From the NCBI GenBank assembly GCA_002633005.1, contig NMRA01000135.1:1-59595 (forward strand): a DNA stretch of 59,595 nt, in the 5' to 3' direction. Shown piece after piece: positions 7,183 to 58,902 of the stretch. The stretch comes from Phoronis australis (lineage: Eukaryota > Animalia > Phoronida). Position 1 is the first letter of the stretch, and each line of letters opens with the position of its first letter. A model generated the notes under the pieces. That model was not told the DNA's origin. It saw only the letters and a list, made by a program, of their open reading frames with translations, and did not search any database. The position numbers and the translations under genes are program-made.

Positions 7183-8041
7183 TTTGTGGTAGTGGTAATA
7201 TGACAGAGACAGTTGTAGTGTATTTATTATCGTCGTTGTCGCCGTTATTATTACTTTGAATATTATTATTTATATTACAATGTTATCGCATTGCATACAC
7301 GAGGTGAGCACAAAGTTTGACTTTGACTGGGGACCAGCCTCATGCGGGGGGACGCCACTCAACAGTCAACCAGCTGAACGTATTTGTCGCTAATTATTGT
7401 TTGATTAAAATATGTTAAAAGTCGTGAATTGAACAAGACACACATCATGTTTGAACCCACTATAGCTGTAGGTTAGTGTACTATTATTATTGATTTTGCC
7501 CACTGAGTACAATAAAACTATGCGGGATGCAGCTTCGATACATTTCTGTAGTTTGAGAATGCGTACAACAGAAACACGCTCGGCTATAAAAAATATCAGA
7601 GGTAAAAAACAAATCGAGGAATGTCGCTCACTCATTCTCTGCTAGTTTACAAACCCGCGACTGGACTTGCACGGTAATGTTAGAACATTAAACTACGACC
7701 AAAAAAACTCAAATGTTTTCGAGCAATGTACGGTAACCTTCGAAACCGACCTTACTAGTAAACTAACAAGCGGACGGCACGAATTGGTATCCCTGACATG
7801 GAATGCATTTTACCTATTTCATTGCTACAGGTTGATAACTTCAACCACCTAGTAAACGGTTGTTTTGCAAAAGAATTATATCTAAATTTATTCTCCCACC
7901 AGCCATCGAGCCGTGAGGAACCATGGAATGAGGTCTCGAATAATGAACTTTTGTTTCTCTGTTTCAAAAATTGCATAGAGGACTTTGTCTCGTACAGAAA
8001 ACATTAAACAAGTTTCGGAGCATCAAGACCACTTTCGAACC

Positions 8042-9922
8042 ATGGGAACTTGTTGTCAAAAGCAAACTTATTCTGTAGAAAGTTGGTTTGAACCGCAGTT
8101 GTCCGGAACGAGAATAAAAAGGCAAAGTCGGACCAACGATGATTTCATGGAGGGTAGCCAGGTGCGCCTGTCGGCCCAACAATGTGAAATCTTGCGACAA
8201 ACCTGGGCACAGACGCTGTCGACAGTTGACCAGAGAGTTCATATCGGGATCATGATTATCGTCAGGTAACGAACGGCATGTTATCTTTAAGCTTTCGATC
8301 TTATTTGATACTTCCCAATAGCTGCATAAATTGAGAGGCAACAAAAAGGAACCACGTCTTTCTCGGCTTTCAGAAACAAAGAATCATAATAACATCTGAG
8401 TTAGCAAATTTCGCGCAGCGTACCTTCCATCAAGAAGTCAACTTTTGATTTTGTCCATCTACCGTTATAAAATCGACTTCGTTACTCAGATTAGAAATTG
8501 TTTTGGAGTTAGCGTAGAACCGACAGTTCGTTACTGCATCAGACAAGACTAGGGAATTTTGTTTGTCACAACAGTTTAGTTTCTGCCGCCGAAGCAGTAT
8601 GACCGTCACGGTGATTTCAGTCAACAAATTTCAACCCGACTTTGAGTTGCCCATTAACACAGGCTACAAAAAGTAGTTAGAAATTTTGATAAGGAATTCC
8701 TATTCGAAACTTTTATTAATTCTTGCCTAACAAAACAGTCATGAAGCAGGCCTAGAAAATGTTTACGAAATTGAAAAGTGGAGAGAAAAACACAGATTTG
8801 ATAAAAGTGCAATTAACGCAGTTCTACTTATTCCAAATCAATCGTTGACAGGTTTCTCGACAAGTGTCCCCATTTGGCCAGAGACTTTCATAAAAACCAG
8901 GATGGCAAAAAAGGAAGTCGTCGTGAACGCTTTACCTTTGACACGATTCAAAAAGATGGCGTTGCTGTTGCTCTCGCTAATTCCATGGTGACGTTGCTTA
9001 CGAATTCTATCAACGGTTACCCGAACTTAGCAACAATTCGCTTAAATATGAACAGACTGGGCTTCGAGATGGGAAACAGAGGGATGTTCGCTAAAGATGC
9101 ATCAGTAAGTGGAGTTTGGTTACTTACGTCACACACCCAACAACAACAGTCGGGGATCATTACATGGCCGGCGCAGCGGCATCTATGGTGCGCGCTGCCC
9201 ATACATTAGTGCATGTAGTCAGATGCCTGTCCTTTGTATTTACCAGGAAATATAGAATGCGTTTCATCAATCGTAATACGTCACTTGAAATAGGAATTAC
9301 GCGTAATTACAGACCACTGTGTATACCTATTTGCGTTTTTATTGACTTATTTAAGATGATGATCAAGTCAAGCAAGTTTGATATCGTGGGCAGTTTGAAA
9401 GCCATTTTGTTGGTGCACAAGCAAAAATATATTCTATATTAGATCCTGCTTATTTTATAAATACTACCGATGTCATACATAAAAAGCAAACCATTCGTCG
9501 GTCAATAACTTTTGGCTAAATAAGTTCACATACGGAAATTTTCGTAGCCTCAAGTCCATTTGAAGCACCAGGGATATTATGGTAGTTTTCCTTCCGCGGT
9601 GAACGTTTTCTGCGCATGTCTCAAATTATCCTTCGAGTAAATTACTTGACGGCTCCGATCTATTCTAGCACAAGTGTGATAAAAAATAACGTTGAGAAAC
9701 TTAGCAACGAAGGCTGGCACTCCCAACAAGAGTACAGATTGGTCCCCTCCGCATTTTTGCTATTAAGCTCACGTTGTTGTCCACTCTGTAACTGCATTCC
9801 TTTTGAATGCTCCCTCTCTGTGTATAAGACCCTAGTGTTAGTGCCATCGTTATGAATGAGAAGCACTGGTGCAAACCTTATCCGTCGTATTATACTGCTT
9901 ATAGAATACTCTTGTACATAAT

Positions 9923-9966
<44 letters not shown>

Positions 9967-12900
9967 CGACAATAATAATAATAATAATAATAATAATCAC
10001 AATAATAATAACAAATAAACGGTTTATGTATTATCTGGGGCCTTTTTGAAAGTGCACGAAAAGAATCCTACGCTGAGACCCTCACCGGCCCAATTTAGGC
10101 AACTTCGACCCGTTCGCTAACTTTAAAATCCGCCGTTATCTTCCATACAGCTTCAGCTGATGTAATCGTTCCTGGAAATTAACTTGCCTTATCAGGTGCG
10201 AAATTGCCCATCGTAAACATGGCTGTAAGCACAGGGGGCAATATTGGTATTTTTCAAATTTTCATTTTGAAAGTTTTAAAATAGCATTTTTGAATAGCTC
10301 GTTTAAAGTTCACGTTATAATATAGTTAGGTTTTTGAATTAAAATCGGAGAAAACTAGGATTTTTATATCCCAAAACTAGAATTAATCCGCAACCAGTAT
10401 TCTGTTGGCCGCACAACATAATGGGCCAATTATCAAAGGTCATAAACCAGCAGTTGGCAATTAGGAAAACGAAGTGCCGTCGCCCAATTCTGGGCATGGA
10501 AATTAACGACCCTGCTTATCAGGTTAGTAAACTCAAGTGACTTTCCAAACTAGGAATTAATATACCGAGGAACGTGGTTGTGTTTTTGGCTTTCACGAAA
10601 TCGATCGCACGCTGGAGGTCAGTGCCCGGTTGCATGAAACAGTCCCAAATAGGGTCTCAACTACATTCTCTATATCTATTGCGTATTTTTGTGCATGTAA
10701 AAACACTGATTGTCCTTTCTTATGTTGTTTGAGTATCATTACTAAGCAAATTTTTGGCTTTTTGTATTAAAATACAAATTGAGAGTGAACTCTACGTTGA
10801 AATCTCAATGTCATTGGTCATACGACGCCCCTAATTTAAGGACTACGTCTCTAATTATTTTGATTGAATTAAAGGCTCAGTTTTTAATTATATTATAAGA
10901 ACGTGATTAGTCAAAGATGAGCCCATAATATAGATAAAATGATAGAAAAATAATACAGCTGTGAGTAAAGAAAGAACCAAATACACAAAAGATTTAGGGA
11001 ACTTCGTTGAGTTCGTGTCTGGGGCCGTTTTATGCAACCCTGCAGGCCTCAGGAGCCTTACTTTCATGAAAGTGAGTAAGATTTTTAATACAGAAATTCG
11101 GTTTTACTCTCCTACTTCGCAACTGCTGGGAAAATGTTCAGCTAAGTAATTACGAATGGATAACAATCTAGAAATAATGAATAAAAATTATATCATAGGT
11201 TAACTGTTATGTGTATATTCTCACACACTTTGTTCTTAATTTTGCTTAGAGATTTAATTGTTTTTCAGGAATAGTTGTGTGGAGTGTAACACTAAATTGT
11301 AGTCTTGAGTCTTGTGTAATTTTTCGTGATACAAACTCCAGAAAGAGGTCACCTTTGGAGGTGTTTCATACATTACGAAAACCTGCCGTTTTGTTTCAGC
11401 TCCATACGACAACGGTTTCTAAATCGAGTCTAAATCCAGATATCAGTCTAGTCCATTGTAAAGCGTTCTCGCGATCCGTTGCCTATAAGCACTACTCACG
11501 GTTCAAAGAGTTACTAAAGCATTCATCAGTGCACCTAACGTATTAATGGCTAATTTTTATCGTACTTCTTCGGGTAAAAGTGCTCTTAACTTAAATTTTA
11601 CTTAGAGTTCAATTTCAGAAGCTAAACAGTTCGAAAAATCACCATTTTTTAGTTCACGATACATCAATTTACTTTACCCAGTGTTTTATTGTCGTGAGGC
11701 CATCGCTAATGTGGTAATTCGTCAATTCCACAAAATAAGACCTTAGAGTCGGATATCCTGATTAAAAATAAGCCTCTTGACATCGGGACTTGTACAAATC
11801 TATTGACGATAGTGCAAGATGTCGTGAAACGGGCCTAGTTTCTAAGTGTCTGCGCGTGTTCAAGCTTCGATCACTAGCAAGTCATGAGACTCTCAAAATG
11901 GAGTGCTTTCGAATGTGCCAGGATAACCGTGTGATAACAGAATTTGGAACATCTCGGGTGTGTTCGTAGCCTCAAATTTCCCCTCGGAGATGAATGTTGT
12001 CACACATGTGGGAACTTAATTCACACGAAAATTTATGTGACTTTCAAACTGGAGAAATTGCTACCGGCTTATTACACATGGTACGTAGTTACTTCAGGAT
12101 TTCCGAGAGTTCAAATGAAAAATTGGTTTCTGTGAATCAAGCGTCACAGGAGGTTCAGGGAGACACAGTTCTCTCCGTGACTGGACTCCTTAACCAGCGG
12201 CCATGAATGACGTCACAGGCAGAATAATATTTGAGTACCCCTTTTGTAAACATGAATCCGCCACCTTTACACGATTTTTATTTGGTCTCATGAATTGTAT
12301 AAAGTAAAATGTAACTATTCATTCTTTCATCAAAAGGCGCTCGTTAATTCGTTGCTACAAGTGATTTCTGCTCAACTCGGCCAACAACAAGAATTTTCTG
12401 CCAATTCAATGGGAGCCTGGCAAGCGGCTGTCATGGTGATGATTCCGTTGATTCAGGAAGGAGTGAAGAGGGGCATCATATCTCAGAATGAACGTGCCGT
12501 GGACGTGCCAGGAATCGTGATAACGGATTCAGGTAAATCGTTTTTAAAACCTTAAAAGGGTATTTTATTCCTTGGTTACATATATGCCACATCCCTAGCA
12601 AGCAAAGCAGCGTTTCATGGGTCATTTTGGAACTTACGTCATCACAAAATATTACAGTTACTCTTGTTTCCCACCGCAGGACTCAGGTGGTTTTACAAAA
12701 AGCTTTCTTCGGTCATGTTAGCTACTAACCAGACAAGTCGATAGAACAAATTTTGCAAACTATATCGTATCATGCTACAATTCAGTGTAGAAATATCTAA
12801 GACATCGGCGTGATTATGCCCGTGCACCGACTATTTGTCAATTCTTATTACGATTCAATTAATTTGATCAAAAACCGGACGATCGCCGCACAAATAAAAA

Positions 12901-15900
12901 AGTTCATGTTCAATTCAACGTTTCGTCTTTTCATTAGACATCATCAGGATCATATTTACAACAATTTAGGACAACAAGTGCCAACATACAGCTCAGGTAA
13001 CATCCATAGAGTGAAGTGAGAGATACGTAGAGTATGGTCAGTAGCTGGTCATCACTATAGCTGCAGGGCCACAGAGCTCTGTGGCGCATGCGTAGACGGT
13101 CTGAACTAGATGAACAAAATGACAAGCCTGCTAATATAACAAAGCCAAACAGCGAACGGGCCTGAAGGGACACCATCGCTAAATGAATAAATCGTTTTAT
13201 AAACGGTGCTAAATTATTTCTTTTCCCTATCAACATAATTATAGAATTCAAACTATTTGTGGAAATTTTCGGAATTAAAGATGTATAGCATGAAAAAACT
13301 ATACTTTCGTGAAAATACGTGGGTAGACGGGAGGTCGCTTAAATACCGATTCTAAAATGCATCTTCTATCTGTTTCAGACGGACAGGGCGATAACCCTGA
13401 TTCAAAAGAGTTTTCTTCAATCCAACTCTTAGAAATAGAAAGCGCGTCGTCTGTTGATCTTTCGGTTCATGACGATGGGCCAAACACTCGCGCAGAAGCA
13501 TACACTACAACTTCGACGTTTAAAACCACTAAGGCAACCACACTATCCACGGAGGCAAAAAACAACCTCGGGTTCAATGAGTTGTCGTCTGCTGAATTCA
13601 ACTGTACAAGCCAGAATGTAACTTCCAATGTAGAGCAGGGCGAAACTACAACTGCAAGTGAAGATTTCAGCTTAGATGACTTTATACCCGACATGTCGAA
13701 TCACTTTAACTCAAAAATGGAAACATTGTTTCCTAAAGATGAACTTATGTTGGTTTCAAATTCGTCGTCCACGGCCAGCGTCTCCGGGATTCACGCCGTT
13801 GACATGTCCTCCCTTGAAAACACGACAGGAATGTCAGTAGGGTCGTCAACACCAAACATGGTAAGCTCATGTAATTAAGTTTTGTTGTGCTTAAAACATA
13901 ACTTGCGGATAAATTGACGACAAAGCGCTTCATGGCAAAAACAAAACTTAAATGCCACTATTCTAATTTGGTAAAACTGTGGTATGATAATTGCTATTTG
14001 GGGTCTTGGCCATCTACTAAAAATAACGATAAATCATCATGACACTGATAATTGCAGTGAAGTAAGCAGCCTGAATGTATGACTGAAATGCCTTTGGAGA
14101 GAAAAAACTTCATTAATACAGTTTACATTTGTATAAAATTCCTGGGTCTTTGATCGTTTCCATTCAGGTCAACAAAAAAGGCGAGGCGAGTCAAGAATTC
14201 TTCCTTTCAACACACGATAGTAGCGAGGTCAGAAGCATACAGGCAAATGTTGGTGACGAAGAAGAATATGGACCAAGTAATGCCGTTTCCATAGGTACTT
14301 TAAAATTTGTTCTCTCTCTATGCCCCTCTGAACATCTACGATGACGCAGTGCGCGTGTGTTGACCATGAAAACTGCTCTTAAGCTATATGAGAAACTAAA
14401 ATCAAAATTAGATTCATACTTACCCATACATATTTATCTTACCACAAAACAATCTTTATTTCCGTCGCCTTGATGAACATCAAGGTCATTCAAGAGTCAA
14501 AGAACGTCTCAAAAACCAAAGGGCTGGTAAGACCTTAAATTTTGACACCTTTCATTCAGTTGCAGATTTTAAGTAACCTACACCCTGTATGTGTAAATAA
14601 CTATTTACAGACACGCGTGTGTAGGTAGAAGTCCCTTGGAACACATGTGTGCCTAAATTTTGGAAATCAAAACGTTACTTGTGATATTTGAGAAGCAAAT
14701 TGAACTAAGATATAATACCGGTAAGTAAGGGCCACAGAAAAAGTCGAACGATGAAAGAAGTCAGCAGTACATGCGGAAATATCAACATATTATAAACAAG
14801 CTCGTCTCTTTTTCTTTTTCCCCGTGCCATTTTATCAAGGAGGCGGCTCAGTTTGCCGATTGCTGCAACGAGATCATTTAACAACCATGAGAGTTCTGCA
14901 AATACATTATTATTGTATTATTTGAACATTGTAAACAGGTAGGTAAGATGATAGTCACGAACTGTAGTAACCAAGATTGAAAATTTTGCAGATTCCACCA
15001 GTGAAAAAATGGGCGATGTGAAAGGTGACCATGCAAGTCAGCAACGCGTTTCTGTCAGAACTGAGAAATTTACAACGCTCGTCAAAGAAACTGGTTCATC
15101 TAACGGTGTTCCACAGGACAGCTTCATGAGTGGAAGTCTGACGTCAGAGTGGATGAGGGAGGCTAATGCTAAGGATTCCTTCATGGGGCAATCTGACGAG
15201 AAACCGAAGTACAGCAGCCACTCCCATGTCATTATTCGAACTGAAACAGAGACGAGGGATCAGATGATTGCCTCTGTAACAAGCAACGAAACAGATTGTT
15301 CAACGTTTGATGCCGTGATTACGGCTGAACCTGAATCTAAAGGTAGTGCCAACATTCGAACTGCGAAAGTGCAGTTAGATCGCAGCAGCTCTAGTAGCTC
15401 CAGTGGCAGTGTTGACGAGAAACGCTCAAAAGAGATTGCTGAAGGAGCTGGAGTTTCGTGTTCAGTTTCTGGAGTCACCGTAATGACTCGACAGAAGACC
15501 GATGGAGGCACCAATGTTTCCAACGACGACGACATTAGTTTACTTCGCAGAAGTAGCTCTCGACTTTCCAGCAGCAGTGATAATGATGAAGAAGGCAAGA
15601 CCAGTGATCACAGAAGCAGTTCTCATTGTTCCAGCAACAGTGAAACACTGACCAGTGGTCAGATTGTCTCTGATCTGACAGATGCGAACGAAATTTCTAG
15701 TGCAGCTGAGATGCGTTCTTCCAAAAAGATCAGAAAACATACCAAACACAATTCAAGCCGTAGATCTAGCTCTCAAAGTAACGACAGCAGCAGTAGTACA
15801 AGTGATGGAAGAGAGAAAACTGACGCAATTGAATGTCAACCATCGGATCGTGATGAATTAAATACGAAACAATGGGCAGAAAATGTCACCCAATACACTA

Positions 15901-18900
15901 GTGAAAATATGAATTTCAAACGCAAAAGTAGTTCGTGTAGTTCCAGCCGCAGTGGAGACGAAGAAAAGAAGTGTGCCGTTACTATGCAAACAAGGGATAT
16001 CGAGACCACGTCACATGTTCCGACTTCTGACGTAACCATTGAGATCCAGAGCCAGCAAGTTAGAAAAAGATACGCCATTTTCAGCACTTCGAATGCTCAG
16101 GTGATCAACAACAACAAGACTAAAAGAGGCAGTACTACATATGTCTCAAATTCTGATGTGTCTCTTAATGGAAACATTAAAGCGGTTACAAATAAGAGAA
16201 GCATCTCCAATACAGATAGCAGCAGTGATGATGAAGATGGAAATGTGGAGAGTAGTATATGTGAGAGCACACCGGCAGGCGTCACTAGTGCTGACGTGGC
16301 TCAGAAACTAAGAGAAAATTACACAGATGTCTCGGTTTCATTTACAAATGAGGAACATTCAAGCGGAGTCAGCGTCTTTGCTGACAGTGTGAAAGAAGCT
16401 AATGTTAAAAGAAGTGATAGTTCTAGCAGTAGTAACGACGAGAACAACGGCAAACATGTTCCTAAAGATGCTGACGTCGCCAAGGGTGAATTCCATGAAG
16501 AGAGTATTACCTTCGAAGAAGCAAAGGCTTCAACCAGACAAATAACGCGTCGTAACGTGCCTACAGTGCAAATAACATCGTTTCATGAACCTGACTGCAT
16601 CGGTAGATCAGACCACGTACAAGATGTGAACGAAGTATCTTTTTCGATGAGCCTTAACAAAACTGACGACTTCGCTGATTCAACTCCAGTTATAACTTTC
16701 AACACTGATGCCCAATTGCCACAATATTCACGTGAGCGAGAAAATTGGATAGTGGAAACCACTGCAAGTCATACAAAACGCCTCCATGCTGGATCTTCTG
16801 GTGAGGGTAAAGCTGTCGTACACGTTCCTCTCAGTCCTTTACCAAGCACAAGACGCATCGTTCGAGTAAGTAATAAAACTCAGGATAGTGATCAAAGTGA
16901 AGAAAAATCTTCCTCAGATTCATCCGACGGAATGGCAAGTAATGAGGACGACCCTGACGTCCAGGTGTTAAGAGCTTTGAAGAAATTGACATCGGCGAAA
17001 AGAAAGATAGTTGATGCTGGGGGCGATGTTCATGATACATCAACTTCGAGCTCGAGGGTTTACCGTTCTATTAAGACTGGAAACGATGAAACTGGTGAGT
17101 CCTATTCATGTGCGTCATTGATTAATTTAGACAATGAGTTTCACTTGTCTAGTGGAGACATAGTCGACACTGAAGAAATAGCTTCGGAGCAATATTCCAA
17201 CAAGGTCACCGGTGTAGTGGCAGCAAAAAGATTGTCTACCGGTATGCGACCACAATTGAATATTCTGACAAAGAACACTGATGTAGCTTCACGAGGTTCA
17301 AATGTCGTTTCCACTTCCAGCTCTCTTGAAGACGAACCGCAATTATTACTTCCCAGGGGATCGACCATAGCCACAAAGAGATTAACCAAAACATCTGACG
17401 ACAAGAGCTCTGTACAAAACAGGTCTACAAAATCTACTGACGGAGATGGCACGATGATCACTGTTCAAAGTGAGCATGCGTGTGGAGAGAGCAACAGTGA
17501 AAGTAATGATGCATCTGAGAAATATGAAGCTTCCACTACCAAGAATGAACAAAAACAGCATTTAGGCGACCTTAAAATTCCCGTGTTGTTTGGAAATTCA
17601 AATAGAAATGGTGCAACAGCGAATGATTCTCAAAATGGCTCCCTAGATGATAATGGGAACCACATGGCGCATGTAGTGCGAGATAACATGGATGATAGGC
17701 AAAATAGCGAGACCCATTCTTCAGATTCGTCTGATGGTGAAACAGGCAATGACGTAATGTCGGGTAAACTGGCATCATATGAGATCAGTAATGTTTCGTC
17801 GGAAAGGAAATTGAAACACACAGTTGGAATTAGTACGTCTAGAAATGATCAATGTTTTGAAAGAGCGGGGAACAATGACGACATCGCTGCGGAATCTACA
17901 TTTTCAAATGCATCCTTGGTAAGTTTAGACGACGAATTTCATGCAACTGGTGAAGATATTGTCGAAGCGGAGGAATTGGTAGCGGACGAATATTCCAGCG
18001 ATGCTGGTATAGTAGCGACAAAAAGACTGTCTACGAGTGTAAAACCAATCCTGAATATTTTGAAAGAAAATGCGGAAGGACACAACATCTGTAAACAAAA
18101 TGAAAATGAAAATACTGACGAGGAAGTAGTACAAGGTATCCATAATCTTGTCAAGGTATATGCAACTGAAATAGAAACAGAAGAAATCCCGGGAGACGCT
18201 AAAATTCCAATCTTAACAGGGGTATTCCCAAACACAGAGGAAGTCGAAGAAAATGAACAAACAATTAAGTCTTCAGGTAACGATGAGACTTTTTCGTCGA
18301 AGGCAAATGATGAAAATGGTTTCATGAGAGGACCTTCGTTTCAGACAATTCATTTCAGTTCTGGTAATAATGCGGATGAAGATGAACTCGATTCACTGAG
18401 GGCGGATGTTAAAAATGGACATGTCAGTGATCAGGCAAGGCAAGCTAGAGCAATGCCCTTTGTATCGTCTAGAATTGATGATGATGACGTCACTTTATCG
18501 CGAATAGTTGACAATGGTGAACCCATCAGTGGTTATACGAAAGAAACGATAAACTTTGTGTCGTCTGATGCATATGGCATTGATGGAGACGCTTCTGGTT
18601 ACAATAAACAAGCGAGGTATCGTTTGGCTTCTGATAATGAAGGTAAACATGAAGTTCAAGCAATAGACGTGAATGACAAGAGCAGATCTGTTACAGGCCA
18701 CGCAAACAATACTATGCAATTTGCAATTTCTGGAACAGAGGAATTTTCTGTACCTAGGGAAGGTGAAGATAATGGTCATATTGGTCATACAAAGACAGTA
18801 ACACATTTTGTGACTTCTCGTGATGAAGCTGAAAAGGTTATACGGGAATTAAAAGAAGAAAGGGCTCTTGTCGGAGGTAATATCGAGCAAACAATACATT

Positions 18901-21248
18901 CTGTGACTTCTGGCGATGAAGACGAATATGCTATACGTAAGGTGAAAGAAAATAAACTGGTCGGTGGTCAAGGCCATCAAGAAGATGACTACGTTACACA
19001 GAAAGTAGAAGAAGCAAAAGGACTAGACACTGGTTATACCAATGAAGCAAAACTTCTGACATGTGGTCATGAGGATAAAGATGTTATGCAGCAGGCAAAC
19101 GAAGAAAATGGGCTAATCCGTGGCCATATCAAAGTACATGTTCAGACTCCTGGCCATGAAGACGAACATGTTGTACTGAAGGGAATTGGAGAAAATGGAT
19201 TGGTGAGTGGTCGTACCGGTCAAGTAATGCAGTCTGTGTTTCCTGGTGGTGAAGATGGATACGTTGTACAGAAAGTAGAAGAGGAAAATAGTTCAGTTAG
19301 TGGTTATATCCTCCATGAAACACATCGCCTGAACTCTGGCGATGAAGACGATGGTGTTTCGGCTAACGTAGAAGACGAAAACGGATTGTTCGGTGGTATT
19401 ATTGAACAAAAACATTCTATGAAATTCGATCGTAGATATGCATATGTAAACAACAATGGAGGACTAGCCGGTGGTCCAGTCGAAGAAACAATGCATTTTG
19501 AGACCTCTGGTAATGAAGATGAAATGCAGAAGATAGGTGACGAACATGGATTGGTAGGTGGTCGTACCAAACTAACACTACATTCTGGGATTTCTGACAA
19601 TAAGGATGAATGTGTTGTACCAAGAACAGCCATAGAAAACAGACGGAGTGGTGGTCTTTCCGACCAAACTATGCATTTTGATGATAAAGGAGATGTTGGG
19701 CAGGCTGTTGATCAATTTCATGGAACAGTGCATTTTGTGGAGACAAATGATAATGGTGACAGCGAATACATCACGCAGAACTTGGAGAAAGAGAACATTC
19801 AGCAAACACGAGGTGAAAAGAATGTTAAGATCACAAGTAATTTCCAAGTAACAACGCATTTTGTGGTATCTGGCGATAACAACGACGAACACACTTCGCA
19901 AAGAATACTACTACGTGAGGTTAATCGTGGTGATGACCAAAATGCCGTTGGTCATTTACAGGAACAGATGCATAAAGCTGATTCTCCACATGGGTACGGA
20001 GGGGACGCATCCATTATCAACGGAAGGGACGAACGTCTAATTTTTAATTCACAACAAACGGGATCTTTTAATAGATCGGGTCATGACGCTCTTGGAACAG
20101 GCAGGGGTAAAGAGCACATCACGCGTGATTTTCAAGAAACGAAAACTTTCGTTGGTTCTGGTTATGGAGATGAGGACGCTGAACAGAACGTACGCAGAGA
20201 AAACAAGACCGTGACTAGTCATTTCCAGGAAATTATCCGAGACAAAAATACTGGACAAGTGGCAAATGAAAAAAGTCATTCCCAAGAAACAATTCAATTT
20301 GTTGGAACAGGTGACAATGGTGAATACGCCGTAGAGAAAGATGTTGGCGAACATTCCCACAAAACCTTAAGAATAATGGGCTCGGACAATGGTACTCACG
20401 TCGTTGGTGACTGCCACGGAATATCTATAAAAAGCGGAAAATCGGAACTACCGAATACGGTGGAGACGCGAGTGTTTGTGTCTAAAATAGAAAGAAAGGT
20501 CAGTAGAAGTAGTGACGTTGTTGCATCGAGTAAGTCCAGCGATGAAGAATTTCCGGATATTGTCATTTCACGTGGCAACAAAGCTATTCACGGACGAAAA
20601 GGAAGTCATAAAAGCATTTTGGAATTTGTCCAAGGGGAAGGGTACGGAGAGACTGGAAAGTGCCGTATAAGTATGGCCGATCAAGATTCGGGCAGCCTAC
20701 GCAATACCACAGGCAACGTTAACAGTGTTTTGACTTCATTTAATTCGAGCAATACAGACGCAAAAGATGTCCATTCGGAAAATAATACGTTCGAACCATC
20801 CGCACATGATATCGTTATCAACGAAATTTCAACGATTTCAGGTAGTGACCAGCTACCACCCGCAGCTACGAAAACACGAATGTCGAGTTCGACGATGAAC
20901 TCGGGCGATTTCGTTATTCCAAAGATCGAAGAAGGGCGTTTTCATCGTCTGCAACTTGCAACAAGAGACGGACGAACAGAATGGAGTGAAAGTGATTTAG
21001 TTACAACCCAACCGCTCAGGTGTGATAGCGACTTTTCCAACATTGCGCCTGCTTTTGTAAATACAGGAGGCCACGACAGTAGTGCCGTGGTATACGCCGG
21101 TGAAAACGATGAAGATACTCATCGAGTAGTGACGACAATTGTCGAGACGATTAGAGATGAATCCGGTCACACGATTGAACGCGTCAAGGAGATTGTTACA
21201 GTGGACGGGGTAACAGTCCAAACAACGGAAAAGGAGGAAGAATTGTAG
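8042..21248 (+). CDS. Giant N-acylated globin-domain protein (~2,512 aa): globin X-like N-terminus, degenerate globin fold and long disordered repeat tail; 6 exons: 8042-8265, 8852-9104, 12337-12532, 13379-13860, 14168-14294, 14992-21248
   Basis: All five introns are GT-AG with matching phases (2,0,1,0,1), giving a 7,539-nt CDS with no internal stop. The start MGTCCQKQ sits in an ACCATGG context. Globin landmarks: LSAQQCEILRQTW (helix A, Trp A12), GIMIIVR|FLDKCPHLARDF (Gly B6, Pro C2, Phe CD1), LGFEMGNRGM (F/FG), ALVNSLLQVI (G), GAWQAA (Trp H8). Introns 1 and 2 fall at the ancestral globin positions B12.2 and G7.0. Confidence 0.82.
9919..10013. repeat. Compound (ACA)n(ATA)n microsatellite
   Basis: Direct reading; lies in globin intron 2. 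Confidence 0.95.
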
Positions 21249-23735: not shown

Positions 23736-24809
23736 ACAAGAGCAACGCGGAGCGTTGAAATGCGCCCACAATTGCACCGCATACGGTATCCCTCTAGGGT
23801 TGTTTATTGGTACCATAAAGTGGCCAGTAGAGGGCATACTTTGCAAAATGGAAAGGCATGGTCAATAGGCTAGGGGCAAAATGTGAGTAATCTTCATAAT
23901 ACAAGCACATCCTATACACCAGTTGCTTAAAGCACCACAGAAACATAGAATTAAAAACAAATTTACCAACATACGAGATTAGCACAGCATTAGAATGCCA
24001 GAAACAAATTTCTACTTGGAACTTTTCCTTCACAGTCACGAAGTAACACAAAGTATACACCTGAAGACCTATGAAAATACAGAGGTCAATGTAAAATACT
24101 AAAATTGCCACTAGAGGCAAATACTAAAATTGCCACTAGAGGCATACCGGTAGTCAGAATCATCCTAAAGTCGTCATCGTCCGTTGTCAACATCACATAA
24201 ATACACTTGCTAAATTTAGTAAAGATCCTGCAAACGGTTTGGGAGATACAGCCATGGGCGCAAAAAAACAAAACTGCCACTAGGAGGCGCCACAGTAGTC
24301 CAAATCGTCTGAAAATCATTGTCAGCTGTCTTCCTTATAGTAAGCACATACACGCCAATTTTCACAATCATCCTTTGAGCGGTTTGGTTGATAGAGGGGT
24401 GGACGCAAAAATACAGACTCGAAAACAGTAAAAATGGCCACTAGGTGGCGCAAACTACGTCGAATCCATCTGAAAACAGTAGGATAGCGTCATCTCACTA
24501 ATAGGTGCCTACATACCAAATTTCATGAAAATCCGTTCAATACTTTTGAAGATACAAAGGTAAGCGTAAAAAACTAAAATTGCCACTAGGGGGCACACCG
24601 GTAGTCGGATCCGTCCGAAAGTTCGCACATGCCGTCCCATTCATGAATGGAACATATGTGCCAAATTTCATGAACGTATGTCAAAGGGTTTTGGAGATAG
24701 AGCAGCGGACGCCGGACGCCAGACGCCGGACGTACGCCGCCCGGACGGACGGACGGACAGAGATGACAGCATAATGCGTCCACATATAAATATGTGGGCG
24801 CATAAAAAT
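23736..24809 (+). mobile_element. Helentron-associated (HINE/DINE-1/pearl-like) non-autonomous element, copy 1
   Basis: Subterminal inverted repeat ATGCGCCCACA/TGTGGGCGCAT, a short terminal hairpin, a (GGAC)n microsatellite, and internal degenerate ~150-bp repeats marked by AAAATTGCCACTAG. A near-identical inverted copy lies at 47825-48909. Confidence 0.8.
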
Positions 24810-25975
24810 GAGAGATCAAAATCTTACGTTTTTTTAATTAATGTGATGACACACGTTTACCGCACATGTAGATACAACATTTTAAGTATTATTCTTTATT
24901 TATCACCTTTCTTAAACAGTTAACGACATTTCCAAGGCTGTCAACGCCTCTATTCATGCAACGGTTTTGATTTTGCTTCCGAAGAACAAGAAGTAACAAA
25001 GCACTGTATACCTAAAACACATTAACGCCACAAATTACCTAACAACGTAGAACGGATAATAATATGGATAAAAGCCGAATGACAGTTACAATTGTCATAG
25101 CGTCCGATATACGTCACAATATTCTGTAAAATAAGATAAGTATACGACAGGAATAACAGACTGTATATGGGACTGAGTGCAGCCCCAAGTGGCAGACGCA
25201 CAGCACTGGACGGGCTTAGAGCGCCTAACCCTAATGTCACCTCCTAGTGCCTAAAGCCTTCCAATGCTCCAGGATCGCTTGTAATACATGGGGAAATTTC
25301 GCGACTCAGGCCAGCAAGAAGGTATAGGGTATAGCACAGCCAGAATCATTCATATTCAACTCCCCCGCAATCACTGTGGCCACCTCAGTAGCAACAAAAG
25401 CTTTCCTTCACTTCAGGGTTGCCACCTGGAGCTTACGCACTAGCCACCCCCAATCCCCCCCCTCCGCTTCCACCGGCCTGCAAAGATGACCAGGAATTTC
25501 GCCAGTTCTCAGGCGCGGGTCTGGGGCTGAACTTATTTTTAAGAAAAGCCTGTTGAATACGAGGAAGCACTTATTTGAAGGATAATCCTAAACCGATGAG
25601 AACACGGGAACCGCTGCTCTAAGGACATCAAAACTAATCAACAAAACACAAAGCCTACACACTGTGACGAGCGAAAACAGGAAACACATTCAAGACAAAA
25701 ACTTATTTACTTTCTGAAAATCAAGGGGTGGAAATAACCGCGCAGTTCCTCGCTTGACAACGCTCACGTGCCGGGTAAACTAAGATTGCGACACACAAAC
25801 ATGGGTCACCCACCGCCAAACAAGAAGCAGGACTCACAAGACATGGCACCCAAAACACACCTGGCGACTTACCAACACGGCTTACCCACCACCCACCATA
25901 GCACACGGTTTGTGACCAAGTTAGCGAGGGTACAACTGAAATTGCATTTTCCCAATTTTCTTAGTAAGCGTTCCT

Positions 25976-27277: not shown

Positions 27278-30200
27278 CTAAAACTGATTGAGATGCTGAC
27301 CATAGGGACCACTGCCAGTGTTGCCACTACCAAAGGGAATCCCATCACTAGCTTCACTGACCTGCAGATTGCATGCATTATATGGACTATAACTGGGTGG
27401 GCTGGACACTGGACTATAGGAATAACCACTTTGCACACAAGGGTTTATCCCAGAAGCCATGTTACCAACAGGATCACATGAACGCACTTCTGCTAACTGA
27501 GGAGATGCCTTCAGATTGTAGGAGTCAAAATACTGCGTTATATTCCTTTTGGCCTTTTCTGGCCAGTGAGGATGGAGTCCGCGGTCTTGCTGAGGTCGAG
27601 TTTGTAATTTATTCTGCAGCAAATTTCCTAGAATGCCTTCTCGAGAGTTAGAATTCTGCGTAAATGGCATCTGCTGATCCCTTGACCATTTGTTAGTGTA
27701 GTGGGACACGGCGAATATTTCCCGCACTTCATTTGAGTATGGCGAATCTGGCGACAAACTGGATTCAACAACTGAAAAGCTTTGAGGATTCAAGTTGAGC
27801 GAAATGGGACGCTGTTGAGCACAACTCTTAGAGCTGCCATAAACCTCCTCGTATCCTCCTACACGGCGACCGTCACTCTGTTGTAATGGGGCATAAAAAC
27901 TGGGTACGTTACGATTCACTTCCACATTTACTTGAACAGGCGCGACAGGTGACGAATCGTACTGAACAGGGCTGTAAACATTTGTGACAGATGAATGCGC
28001 GGATGACACACCCAAACCACAGCTATGATCACCAAAGCTAACCGGTAAACTATACATTATGCTGGCAGCACTAGTACTATTGTCATCACTATCCTTGCTG
28101 TAAATAAAACTTTCAGCAGACTGTTGAACAGCAGAAGATACAGTGCTGATAGCATCGCTGTCTGTGCTATTGTCCCCGTAAGTTTCCTTATAAAATGGCT
28201 TCACAACATCAGGCACACTGTCACCGGATGGTGACTGCACCGGACGGAATTTGCCAACAGGTGTCATGGGTGGGTTCTGCAGTGCACTGTCTGCACGCGA
28301 GACACTTGCCTGCACACGCGACTGACCACTTGTCACAGACAGATTTGTTTCAAGCCACGATACACTAGCATCCATGTGTGATGAAGCTGATCCCAGGCGC
28401 GAGTCATTTGAGTTAGCATATGACACATCAGTGTCGGAATGTGATGAAATATTGCGGGAAATGTTGCCAGTAAATGTGACGCATGTGTTTTCATGTGAAT
28501 TGATATTTTCCTGATGTGATACAACCTTTTCAGGATACGACATATCAATATCACATCCTGAATCCTTGCACGTTAAAAGATTTTTCAACAGTGTCAAGTC
28601 ATCATTGGGTTCCCGGTGTTCAGGATCACTAGCCTGCATTTCTAGCAGTGGTGCAGAATGCCTGTGTTGAGACACAAAACTTGTGTCGTGGAACAAGAAT
28701 GAATTTAGGTCCTCACTATCAGGAAAATCTTGACTGGAGGAGTCGGTATGAGGAAGAAAGTCCAATTCTTTATCAAAGGTTATGTCACACGGAAGATCTG
28801 TTGGTAAAATGCTAAAATGACTTGTTGTTGTCACATCTTGCCACTCGCTGGAAGCTGCAGTTGTCTTGGAGGAGTCAATGACAAGTCGTTTCGAACTTAC
28901 AGTATCAGAAGTATCAGTCGACAGCCTCTTAACACCTCTTGGTGAAAGCACTTTTGGATTTGTTTTGTTTTTACTGATGACAGTTTTACTAGCGTCTGTA
29001 CTTGAAACACTTTTCTCTCCACCATGTACATTTGAATCAGAGAGTCCATCACCTGAACTTTCCAGAGCTTTTACATTAGACATTGGTAAGCTCCCAGTAC
29101 TTGCACTAGATCCTGCTTTGTGCTTTTGACTCTTTAGGACAAGTCTGTTTTTGACAGATTCTTTCACTGCAGCACTTTGCAGCTTGCGCTTTTCCTTCAG
29201 CAAGTTTGCAACAGTCATATTACTATTCCGTGAACTTGAGGACTGTCCTGTACCTACCCTCATTGACTTGTCAACCGGAACTGAAGCACTTCGGACTGTG
29301 ACAAGGGGACTTGATTTGTGACCAAATATAATTACCGATGGCACAGTTGGTGAAATCACAGGAAGTGAATCTGAGGCTGAAGTTGAAACTGCAGTGCCAT
29401 CTGTTGTAGTTGCCATCGTCATCGTTGTTGTTAAAGGCAAGGGCTTGTCCGGACTACTTTGAATAATGTCAGTAGTACTTTTGTTGGCAGAAAGGACAGG
29501 TACAAATGCACTGGGCACGCCATCCTGGGTTATTGGTTGTTTCATTTTCTCTGCAACAAGGGAAAGGTTAACGGATGATAATGAACGTGAACAAACTGAC
29601 CATGTGAACAAACTGACCATGTGAACAAACTGACCATGTGAACAAACTGACCATGTGAACAAACTGACCATGTGAACAAACTGACCATGTGAACTCTAGT
29701 TGTTTTAAGGTAAAGACACGTTACGTAACTAACTATTCGTGTTCATGCCCAAAGAGTTCAAATTACAAAACTCAAAAACCAGGCAGTGGGCATTCTACAC
29801 TGATAAGCTCTTATGACTTTCGGTAAATCGCTTCCCGCTAATGAAAACTTTTCTAAGCCACTGACCCACATTCATTTAAGGCAGTGACTACAGCGAAACT
29901 GACGAGAGACATTGCCTTATAAACTAGCATGAAATCAATGCATTCCAAGGCTGTTTAAAATACAAATTTTTGGAAAAATGACGAGGGCGTGTGCTTTCTT
30001 TAAGTAGTGATGAGCGACTTCAAAAATGACGTGGACGCAGAATAGAACTTAATATGGTTTTTGGCTTAATCACGACGACCAATATGACCATCACACTCAA
30101 AGTCAAGCTACAATAGAATAGAAAGCACACCAACAAGCATTATTTGAATCTAAAAGATTCACGGAATGATCAGATGAAAATAAAAACAAGTTTGCAAAGC

Positions 30201-33200
30201 TCATGACCCAAAAATTTACAACTGAGCAGATTGCGATATCTGGGCATTCTCTTCTAAGTGACATCAATATATTGTCAAAACCAAAATGGAAGTAAGAGCA
30301 CACATCTTGAATTTCACTGCAGGAAGATTAAGACATTTGTATTTCAAGGATAAAAAGAAATTATTACACATAAACTCTGACGACCTTTAGTTCACAAAGT
30401 GCGATCAAGTCCTCGCCAACGTGGAGGTTATTTCTGCAATTCTGAATCTAAAACTCAACATGAAGAGCTTCAGGCAGATAAAAAAGCAGCCATTTTACCT
30501 GATTAAGTTACATGTGCTTTCAAATTGAGCTTGTTCTTCTTTTGCAAACAAACTCAGTAGAAAACAGAGGATGTACAAGACGACTCTAAGGCACTCTTAC
30601 CAGACAGTTTATCATTCTGTTTTTCCAGAAGTTTTTTTTTCAGCTCCAACTTGCCACAAAGAACAGCTGACAGCTGTAACTGCACACTTGGCGCGGTCTG
30701 ACCTTGTTGTTTACAAAGGCGTGATGACAACTGAAGAGAGCTCTTGGACCTTGGATTTACAAACGCTTTAGAGACCAAAAATTCTGCTACAGACAGAAGA
30801 CTTATAAATTCTCGTCTAAAACTTTTCTCTGCCCATTCGCAAATGACAGCTTCACACGCCTCTTCAATTGAATTCGGTTTCTGTAAAACAAAGATTGCTT
30901 TAAAAACTTGCTCCAATTGATTTTTTAAAAAAATTGGCACGGCTGATTGTGATTTTTGTACTTTTTGTAACAAAGTCCCGGAGACTGACATACATATTTT
31001 CTAGGTTTGTAAGATTGTAAAGCCACAAAGAATTAGTTTATTTTGTGGCTAAATCAGATTTTAAATTATAATTTAATTATATCCATTTTAAAAATTCTCA
31101 ATTTTCCGAGTGCTCGGTACTCAAGAAAGCATGACCACCAACAGTTCCCCAGTAAAATTCCGAGCCCAATTTGGCAAATATTACTTAAAAAATCCCGAGA
31201 TTACCAAGTACCGAACTTGAAAAAGTACTCAAAATATACCATGACTTCATTGAAAAATGACAATGATCTTTATCACATCTTCTACTCTGCTGACTGACTG
31301 TGGTGGACGTTAGGTTTCAAATTAACAAATATGCCTTCACGTACAAACGTGCAATTCATTTTCAACAATTTTTCAACTGCTCATCAATAACACAGTACAA
31401 GCCAAAAGTATTCAGACAAAATGATCCGAAATTCCCCCATCATGACAGCTGGACGGAAGCCGAATTCATCGTCCGACTAGTCTTCCCGAATAACCAAGAA
31501 TGAAGAGGTATGAACAGGAAACTTAGTAAGGTGGCTAAAAGCCATTCTTTAATTAGAATTTTGCCACCGTTATAGTAGGTACCAGTCATTTTATCGTCAC
31601 AGTAATCTTCTCATGACCGAGAATGAATGTGGATTAACAGGAGAGTTAGCAAGGTGGCTAAGTCAATCTCTAATTAGAATTCCGTCGCCCTATTATTTAT
31701 TACCAGTCTTTTTGCTGTGAACAGAATTATTGGTTCTGACAGGCAAACAGTAGTTTGTCTCATCACTATTGTCTTGTGCTGTATTTACCTGTTTGGCTTT
31801 TTTGTCTGCCTTTTTCCTAACACCACTGTAACAATACTTGTGGTTCAGTCGGCCACCAAGTCTTCGCTCTTTGACATTTGGAAAGGCGATATGAAACACC
31901 TTCCCAAAGTTGCTTTCACCGATGGACTTTAAGCTATTGCTCTCACAAAAGGCACTGAAATGACAGTGATACAGCACTGAAATCCAACAAGTCAATGACA
32001 GGTACTTGGCTTAAGAGGATTTGACATTTTTTATTTATCGTTGAATTTTTGATTTTTTTTAATATTTTGATTATTTACTACTTGCAAACAAGTGGGGGGG
32101 TCCCCGGTATAGTGGCCCATATAGAGGAACCTCTCCCAAAATGCAAAATTTTCATGCTTAGCCTATTGGATTATAAAAGAAAACCTACATCAAATTAAAT
32201 AAGTGATTGAAATCCTTTTGAAAACATTAATTTTTTTTGGACGATCTCTTAATGGCTTTAATTACAACATCTGGCTTAGTGATTTTCCGACGTTTGCATA
32301 ATTTAATATTTCTCACATTTTAGCTTTTTGGCTTTACACCAAAGGTTGCATCGTTACTTTTTTAAATTTTCAATGTTCATCTTTAATCCTTCATGTTTGG
32401 TCTCGAAACATCTTGATATTGAAACCAGTATCTGACAATCCCAGCAAAACACAGTGAACATAGAGTTAAAACAGCAGCAATCTAAAGAGGGAACATTTTA
32501 GTAGAAACATGTGTGCCAAATGCCAATAAATTCCTATAATGGGCTTAAAAATAGGAACCAGGGCTGAGGGCAATGCAAAATGCATCTACAAATGCATACA
32601 GAAATGAACATTTCACAAGCATGCCAGTGTCATTGGCAAATCAAAAATTCCATTGACGCACATTGATTGCTCAACTCGGGTGAATAGGCACCTTAAAATT
32701 GGGTCTGCGTAATGTGCATTACATTCAGATTCTAACGCAATGGCACCGCAGGACGGCTGAACAAAACCAACATTTGAGATGCAACCAATTGACTTTAGCA
32801 TATTGCGAAAACACAAAAGCCAACTGCGAGCTTACCTGTTTGTTTGAACAAAAATAACATTAGCGTCACGTAACATACTGGGACGACAAACAAAATCACA
32901 AACACGAATGACGTCAAAAATGTGGTCAGAAAAATGTGACTCATATATGGTCTAATCTGACCTATAGTGTTAACAAAGAGCCACGTTTTCTAACATGACC
33001 CTTAGTATAGGAGCGCACAAAAATGAGATGTTATTCATGAATTACCAATAATCTTGAAAGACATCCTTCTTCACCAGTGACTGTCTTGGGTGATACTCAA
33101 CATGATCTTCAATCCAACCAAATGCCTGAGAGTATCCCGTGAACTTGCCTTCTTCAAACAAAGACCTGAAGAACAACATTAAAATTAGAAGCACCATGAT

Positions 33201-39082: not shown

Positions 39083-49421
<10,339 letters not shown>

Positions 49422-50008: not shown

Positions 50009-58902
<8,894 letters not shown>

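Follow-up and report, generated by a model that had tools for sequence, protein, structure and literature searches.

The window, a stretch of 59,595 nucleotides of a Phoronis australis contig (NMRA01000135.1), contains a transcribed three-exon gene for what we take to be a strongly diverged globin without any histidine in helices E to H. Its product is likely (probability of roughly 0.6) a heme-free globin held at the membrane by acyl chains, with a pocket for a lipid-like ligand or with a surface used for docking. In the mechanism proposed, loss of the iron ligand at F8, of the distal residue at E7 and of two propionate anchors would mean that heme is no longer held. A predicted myristoyl group on Gly2 and predicted palmitoyl groups on Cys4/Cys5 would tether the protein to the inner face of the membrane, perhaps with help from the basic stretch of the CD region. 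The emptied pocket, lined by Leu, Met, Ile and Phe, might then receive a lipid-like ligand, or the protein might act as a docking module. A lipid as the ligand is speculative; the idea follows the example of the RsbR-type globin domain of Bacillus, which is free of heme and binds a fatty acid.

Gene structure and transcription

The gene lies on the forward strand and its features are listed in Table 1. Splicing with canonical sites joins the coding parts of the three exons into an intact frame of 231 codons with a single, terminal stop, giving a product of 231 amino acids. The start codon is embedded in ACCATGG and the nearest in-frame stop upstream is found at 7976, 66 bases away. Intron 1 splits codon 75 (Arg75, B12) after its second base (phase 2). 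Exon 2 is bordered by AG at 8850-8851 and by GT at 9105-9106, and both VAVALANSMVTLL and NMNRLGFEMGNRGM are read in its open frame. Exon 3 ranks first among 6706 AG acceptors of both strands when compared with a profile of helices G and H (16.6 bits; the next acceptor has 7.4 bits). A joint between exons 2 and 3 was absent among the RNA joints listed; the position of intron 2 rests on the sequence, on this profile rank and on the RNA coverage of the exons.

Table 1. Features of the globin gene in the window.
Feature	Positions	Strand	Basis
MGTCC: predicted signal for myristoylation (Gly2) and palmitoylation (Cys4/Cys5)	8042..8056	+	sequence; likeness to the MGC motif of GbX
Exon 1, coding part: N-terminal extension, helix A (Trp55), helix B to codon B12	8042..8265	+	ACCATGG start; RNA depth 2-4 in X5
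Intron 1, GT..AG, 586 bases, globin position B12.2	8266..8851	+	RNA joint (4 reads in X5, 2 reads in X6)
Exon 2: end of B, C, extended CD loop, E, F, FG, G1-G6	8852..9104	+	sequence, RNA joint, profile and MAFFT alignments
Phe87 at CD1, kept	8886..8888	+	profile and MAFFT alignments
CD stretch, basic and Gly-rich: 6 Lys/Arg and 2 acidic residues in 14 amino acids	8889..8930	+	sequence; low pLDDT in the exon 2 model
Leu116 at E7, replacing the distal His	8973..8975 (CTC)	+	neuroglobin count and hand alignment
Ser119 at E10, Met120 at E11	8982..8987	+	hand comparison with Nematostella globins
Glu147 at F7, Met148 at F8	9066..9071	+	profile, MAFFT, register slide, hand comparison
Intron 2, GT..AG, phase 0 after Ser159, 3232 bases, repeat-rich, globin position G7.0	9105..12336	+	sequence
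Exon 3: helices G and H (Trp187), C-terminal tail, stop	12337..12555	+	G-H profile rank; RNA depth 1.5-4 in X5, same strand as exons 1-2

Transcription was followed in three raw-read RNA runs, of each of which about 18-19% was sampled. X5 is the sole one whose reads cover all three exons, on one strand and at a depth of 1.5-7; reads of X6 touch exons 1 and 2 only, X7 gave no reads on the exons, and no RNA contig of X8 was placed at the locus. Expression is low (16 reads in X5 and 3 reads in X6). X5 coverage of about 2 reads extends beyond the exon 2 donor to about position 9156, corresponding to unspliced RNA or to a retained intron 2.

The transcribed 5′ leader carries three upstream ATGs (7923-7978, forward strand) that open short frames of 2, 16 and 11 codons, ending before the main start. 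Intron 2 and the region 3′ of exon 3 (9920-10019, 10620-10663 and 12866-13000) harbour an (AAC)n/(AAT)n microsatellite and short dispersed repeats of very high copy number, whose summed contig depth reaches about 15000.

Globin identity of the encoded protein

We regard the protein as a genuine animal globin that has diverged strongly; its signal in sequence comparisons is weak yet above chance. The reference was a collection of 51 bacterial 3-over-3 globin domains, cut to 38 at <70% identity. Whole-domain alignment to the profile gave z values of 3.8, 4.1 and 2.8 under three gap settings (scores reached by 0, 1 and 5 of 1000 shuffles, respectively), and sets the helix A Trp/Phe, Arg B12, Pro C2, Phe CD1 and Trp H8 correctly. 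In local HMMER comparison the spliced protein scored 4.6 bits with the 38-sequence profile, a value matched by one shuffle in 2000, and 2.2 bits with the first, 30-sequence profile, for which at least 10 of 2000 shuffles were higher. The hhalign probability of the spliced protein against the bacterial globin profile was <1%. None of the three exons, scanned singly, matches Pfam at E≤1 (PF00042 included), and a PDB sequence search with each exon yielded no globin match. The profile that results from aligning exon 2 with 22 bacterial globins recognises neuroglobins (E ~1e-24). For exon 2, the top three places of an Atlas feature search go to globin clusters, with a score of 0.86 that is a lead only; for exon 3 unnamed clusters are on top and a cluster with 36% globins stands at rank 11.

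The introns provide evidence independent of these scores, both of them coinciding exactly with positions B12.2 and G7.0 of the alignment. This pattern is the one of cnidarian globins (PMC6077788), and the same two-intron structure is described for arthropod GbXL (PMC7457136). Residues 102-173 align by eye without gaps to the Nematostella protein A7SFV0 (PMC7771090, supplementary file 6), the identity over the whole comparison being ~18% by hand count (26 of 141 aligned positions). Trp55 (A12), Gly69 (B6), Pro81 (C2), Phe87 (CD1) and Trp187 (H8) are all kept in an intact frame, as the first-pass annotation of this DNA had stated. The helices follow each other in the normal A-H order in a frame of 231 amino acids with its own start and stop, unlike androglobin, whose permuted globin is embedded in a large calpain-domain protein.

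Structural modelling covered exon 2 only. Modelled alone, exon 2 reached a pLDDT of 54, and both this model and the fold search with it were uninformative. Modelling with the globin alignment, a circular input, raised the pLDDT to 74 (84-88 in helices E and F). Fold matches of the alignment-guided model were not significant and included globins only at Z ~4.2 or E>4; mouse neuroglobin residues 31-107 matched residues 1-84 of this circular model with a non-significant Z of 4.2 (rmsd 3.4 over 73 residues).

The weakness of the sequence signal speaks for a protein of non-standard geometry, in which heme would be held by His82, His88, Cys80 or Tyr131, or even for one with no globin fold at all. 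Of these, His82 and His88 are C/CD residues adjoining the pocket, and there is an insertion in the CD region. We give this possibility little credence: both introns sit exactly at B12.2 and G7.0, exon 3 is the top G-H match of all acceptors, the Atlas search places globin clusters first for exon 2 (as a lead), and the hand alignment to A7SFV0 is free of gaps over residues 102-173. Globin ancestry, like the register described below, is supported by the statistics.

Register of the heme-ligand positions

Histidine is found in the whole 231-residue product only at positions 67, 82 and 88, that is in the B, C and CD regions, and is absent from helices E to H. None of these residues can be F8 or E7, whatever the exact register, and no alignment can bring a His to F8. 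The F8 position is occupied by Met148 (ATG, 9069-9071). The His column of the 38-sequence bacterial profile, in which 37 sequences have His, falls on Met148 under all three gap settings, and both MAFFT alignments place the same residue there. When the register was slid without the F8 column, shift 0 was the best of 17 with +7.0 bits (next, -3.3). A hand alignment to neuroglobin and to Nematostella globins also gives Met148 at F8. In human neuroglobin B10, E7, E11, F8 and G8 are residues 28, 64, 68, 96 and 109 (PMC3535368); this numbering, combined with the G7.0 intron after Ser159, assigns Ile73 to B10, Leu116 to E7, Met120 to E11, Met148 to F8 and Leu161 to G8. The assignment of E7 rests on this count and on the hand alignment because the gaps of the bacterial profile vary in that region.

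A different register was considered and rejected. Myoglobin-type spacing is 12, which would put Glu147 at F8, still not a His, and is disfavoured in the slide test by -30 bits. A second, His-bearing exon 2 in the window was looked for among 7258 donor sites and was not found in the top 8; the scan is weak, since the true donor ranks 44th. The claims of the first-pass annotation that F8 is Met, E7 is Leu and helices E-H are devoid of His, including its count back from the G7.0 intron, are thus borne out. Its interpretation is supported in part: the register and the view of the protein as a pseudo-globin hold.

Chemistry of the pocket and of the N-terminus

The residues assigned to the pocket are Ile at B10, Phe at CD1, Leu at E7, Met at E11, Leu at F4, Met at F8, Ala at G5 and Leu at G8. 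Compared with neuroglobin, CD1 and E7 are separated by 7 additional residues. Hand comparison with nine Nematostella globins shows that the changes reach beyond the two histidine positions: F8 is His in 9/9 of them, E10 is Arg or Lys in 9/9 (Ser here), F7 is Arg in 8/9 (Glu here) and E11 is Met in 0/9 (Met here). Human neuroglobin, also read by hand, has Lys at E10 and at F7. Arg F7 binds a heme propionate in GLB-1 of C. elegans (PMC2867796). Since the F8 ligand, the distal E7 residue and the E10 and F7 propionate anchors have all changed, we infer the loss of heme; together these four losses form the pattern that would be expected of a pocket no longer holding it.

PheCD1 is kept and Met is found at both E11 and F8, a combination that could still ligate iron. 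Heme b might be bound through Met148 alone, or through Met148 and Met120 as a six-coordinate bis-Met heme, in a protein devoted to membrane redox or heme relay and not to gas carriage; we regard this as rather unlikely. The presence of Met at both positions (E11 Met being foreign to the nine Nematostella globins) and the kept PheCD1 fit such a scheme. The globin-coupled sensor of Geobacter sulfurreducens, with its HisF8-Fe-HisE11 coordination (PMC8076648), provides a precedent for E11 as the sixth ligand and shows that E11 and F8 can ligate heme in a globin, while bis-Met ligation of heme b is found in bacterioferritin and Shp (PMC11697534), whose folds are unrelated to globin. Against it stands the disappearance of positive charge at E10 and F7, the latter having become Glu, and the loss of these basic residues makes a heme-free protein more likely than Met ligation. 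A thioether is, moreover, a weak ligand of ferric heme. Met is frequent in the core (7 of 101 residues), and its occurrence at both E11 and F8 may therefore be due to chance. No report of a globin with Met ligands or with MetF8 was found in the openly licensed literature searched. The fully sulfur-ligated form, a membrane-anchored MetE11/MetF8 heme globin that would be the Met counterpart of the Geobacter HisE11/HisF8 protein, is less probable still. If true, sulfur would take the place of histidine as heme ligand for the first time in a natural globin, a new globin chemistry, and the protein would serve membrane redox reactions or heme relay instead of gas binding.

From the letters of the N-terminus, MGTCCQ, we infer acylation: Gly2 and Cys4/Cys5 are present, though the sequence is not an exact MGC motif and position 6 is Gln, not Ser/Thr. 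The myristoylation consensus used in PMC7771090 is MGXXXS/T, and GbX carries a myristoyl group on Gly2 and a palmitoyl group on Cys3 (PMC7475203).

Sequence accuracy and selection

An error of sequencing or assembly, or a private mutation, is effectively refuted as the origin of Met at F8. The ATG codon has no base in common with CAT or CAC at any of its three positions. No alternative letter is listed at 9069-9071 in X5 RNA (bin depth 3.4-6.7), and there is none in the X2 contig 8868-9145, which includes the Met148 codon, at a depth of 46.8. X5 comes from another sample and another study than the DNA runs; the DNA runs of 2017 may be the source of the assembly and are thus not independent of it. 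The distance of three bases from any His codon and the invariance of the reads together rule out an error at this codon, and several other pocket residues have changed as well.

The gene might be a redundant duplicate that lost heme binding and now drifts towards a pseudogene while still being weakly transcribed. Its very high divergence (~18% identity to A7SFV0), its low expression and the failure to find an orthologue (see below) agree with such a fate. The frame is nevertheless intact across three exons despite the divergence, and the change at F8 took three base changes. Among the coding variants listed, 6 of 7 are synonymous, where the expected share is 0.22-0.27 (P 0.0006-0.002; for exon 3 the count is among the variants listed), and in exons 1-2, for which the variant list is full, 3 of 3 are synonymous; this excess argues against decay. 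Exon 2 has 1 difference in 253 bases versus 34 in 567 in the flanking introns (Fisher P 5e-5), a contrast to be read knowing that contigs hide isolated variants and that the 5′ flank is invariant too (0 of 262). Purifying selection within the species, as opposed to the neutral variation that would signal decay, is supported by these statistics with a small variant count, and a decaying duplicate appears improbable.

The sole amino acid variant listed is at position 12409 and converts Met184 to Leu. DNA run X1 carries it, as do 4 of 6 X5 RNA reads, showing that it segregates across samples.

Searches for orthologues

None of the 62 candidates from a word index search with exon 2 (proteins of 148-2000 amino acids) reached E≤1, and none of 24 did so for exon 3. 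A full phmmer search of 1.84 billion representatives with exon 2 retrieved two long proteins, matched over 20 and 9 short stretches, that were judged spurious. Metagenome contigs gave 0 of 176 for exon 2 and 0 of 507 for exon 3; exon 1 was compared with Pfam and PDB only. As a control, an exon of the neighbouring gene region without a Pfam match (30557-31000), which we take to be part of an RFX gene, was searched and likewise gave 0 of 753. The control is a weak one, yet it indicates that the collections may lack this lineage, and the empty searches are no proof of an orphan gene. Six short motifs of the protein, sought in 8 supplements of PMC7771090, retrieved no relative and one unrelated match.

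Other features of the window

An exon coding for an RFX DNA-binding domain lies on the reverse strand at 31696-32010 (PF02257, E 6.2e-14), followed on the same strand by frames of 148 codons (30557-31000) and 805 codons (27281-29695). These three segments presumably belong to one RFX5/7-like gene. Immediately 3′ of the globin gene, on the forward strand, a frame of 183 codons (13327-13878) precedes a frame of 2097 codons (14955-21248) that is rich in Ser, Glu and Gly, contains internal repeats and has no Pfam match. Two exons separated by an intron at 50012-50926 (reverse strand) match DUF455 (PF04305, E 1.6e-18 and 5.2e-10), a domain mainly known from bacteria and plants. A coiled-coil exon at 44919-45173 (forward strand) has weak KIF21A-like and intermediate-filament matches, both below the cut-offs. 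Near-identical dispersed elements with matching open-frame translations occur in two pairs: 24570-24923 (forward) with 47703-48047 (reverse), and 2241-2585 with 54516-54863 (both reverse).

Comparison with known globins

The gene probably descends from acylated globins with two introns, which are typical of anthozoans. The closest resemblance seen by eye is to three acylated proteins of Nematostella vectensis (A7SFV0, A7RHV8 and A7RZB2; GbX-like clade, PMC6077788). They share with the phoronid protein the N-terminal Gly-Cys extension, the B12.2 and G7.0 introns and, in hand comparison, an LSxxQxxxxRxTW helix A, R-FxDxxP at B/C, a spacing of 32 from E7 to F8, an Arg three residues after F8 and an Ala at G7. 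The anthozoan globins differ by HisF8 (9/9), described as "highly conserved" in cnidarian globins (PMC6077788), by His or Gln at E7 and by basic residues at E10 and F7, and the identity (~18%) is low. GbX and GbXL also have an N-terminal extension with Gly2 and a nearby Cys, their mean lengths in arthropods being 228 and 199 amino acids (PMC7457136) as compared to 231 here, and GbXL has the same two-intron structure. In contrast, GbX has bis-His coordination through E7 and F8, where the phoronid protein has Leu116 and Met148, and a central E10.2 intron (PMC7457136), which is absent from the uninterrupted, RNA-covered exon 2. In both GbX and GbXL, conservation of the three key sites is high (PMC7457136).

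Among the residues of animal globins, HisF8 alone comes close to being universal, and the acylated classes have been called the most conserved ones. A member maintained without HisF8 would show a membrane globin keeping its job without heme, which bears on the role of globin X-type proteins and on whether selection keeps their protein surface rather than their heme. The divergence is so high that single-exon surveys of the Pfam or BLAST type miss the gene, and globin counts for such animals may therefore be incomplete.

The rarity of such a protein was overstated in the first-pass annotation, as animal globins without HisF8 have been reported at the sequence level. Five HbL globins of Daphnia pulex have Tyr (four) or Val (one) at F8, Puriana HbL2 has MetCD1, ValE7 and ValF8, and hexapod androglobins are also His-less (PMC7457136). 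These are likewise animal globin domains without HisF8, some also lacking the E7 residue, and an alternative function was proposed for them. They differ in belonging to the fast-evolving HbL class or to androglobins and not to the acylated class; none is reported there with MetF8, and here PheCD1 is kept. His-less animal globins being already known, what is new is that the loss would have arisen in an acylated class and that the E10 and F7 anchors are gone as well. No report of a His-less cnidarian or acylated globin was found in the openly licensed literature searched; one could stand in the supplements of PMC6077788 or PMC7457136.

Bacteria have globin folds without heme whose ligand is a fatty acid or a bilin (PMC8717448). 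The N-terminal domain of RsbR, the sporulation sensor domain of Bacillus anthracis, phycocyanin and photoglobin (PMC8717448, PMC7475203) all resemble the phoronid protein in having neither distal nor proximal His, and they reuse the pocket for another ligand, as is proposed here. The RsbR type has an Arg at the site equivalent to F8 and binds a fatty acid, and phycocyanin has Cys, Asp and Tyr, with the bilin-binding Cys at the E7-equivalent site (PMC8717448); the phoronid protein has Met148 at F8, Leu and Met at these positions and no Cys after residue 80. The bacterial folds are separate families, whereas this gene would derive from intron-bearing heme globins of animals. By analogy, the protein most likely works as these heme-free bacterial globin folds do.
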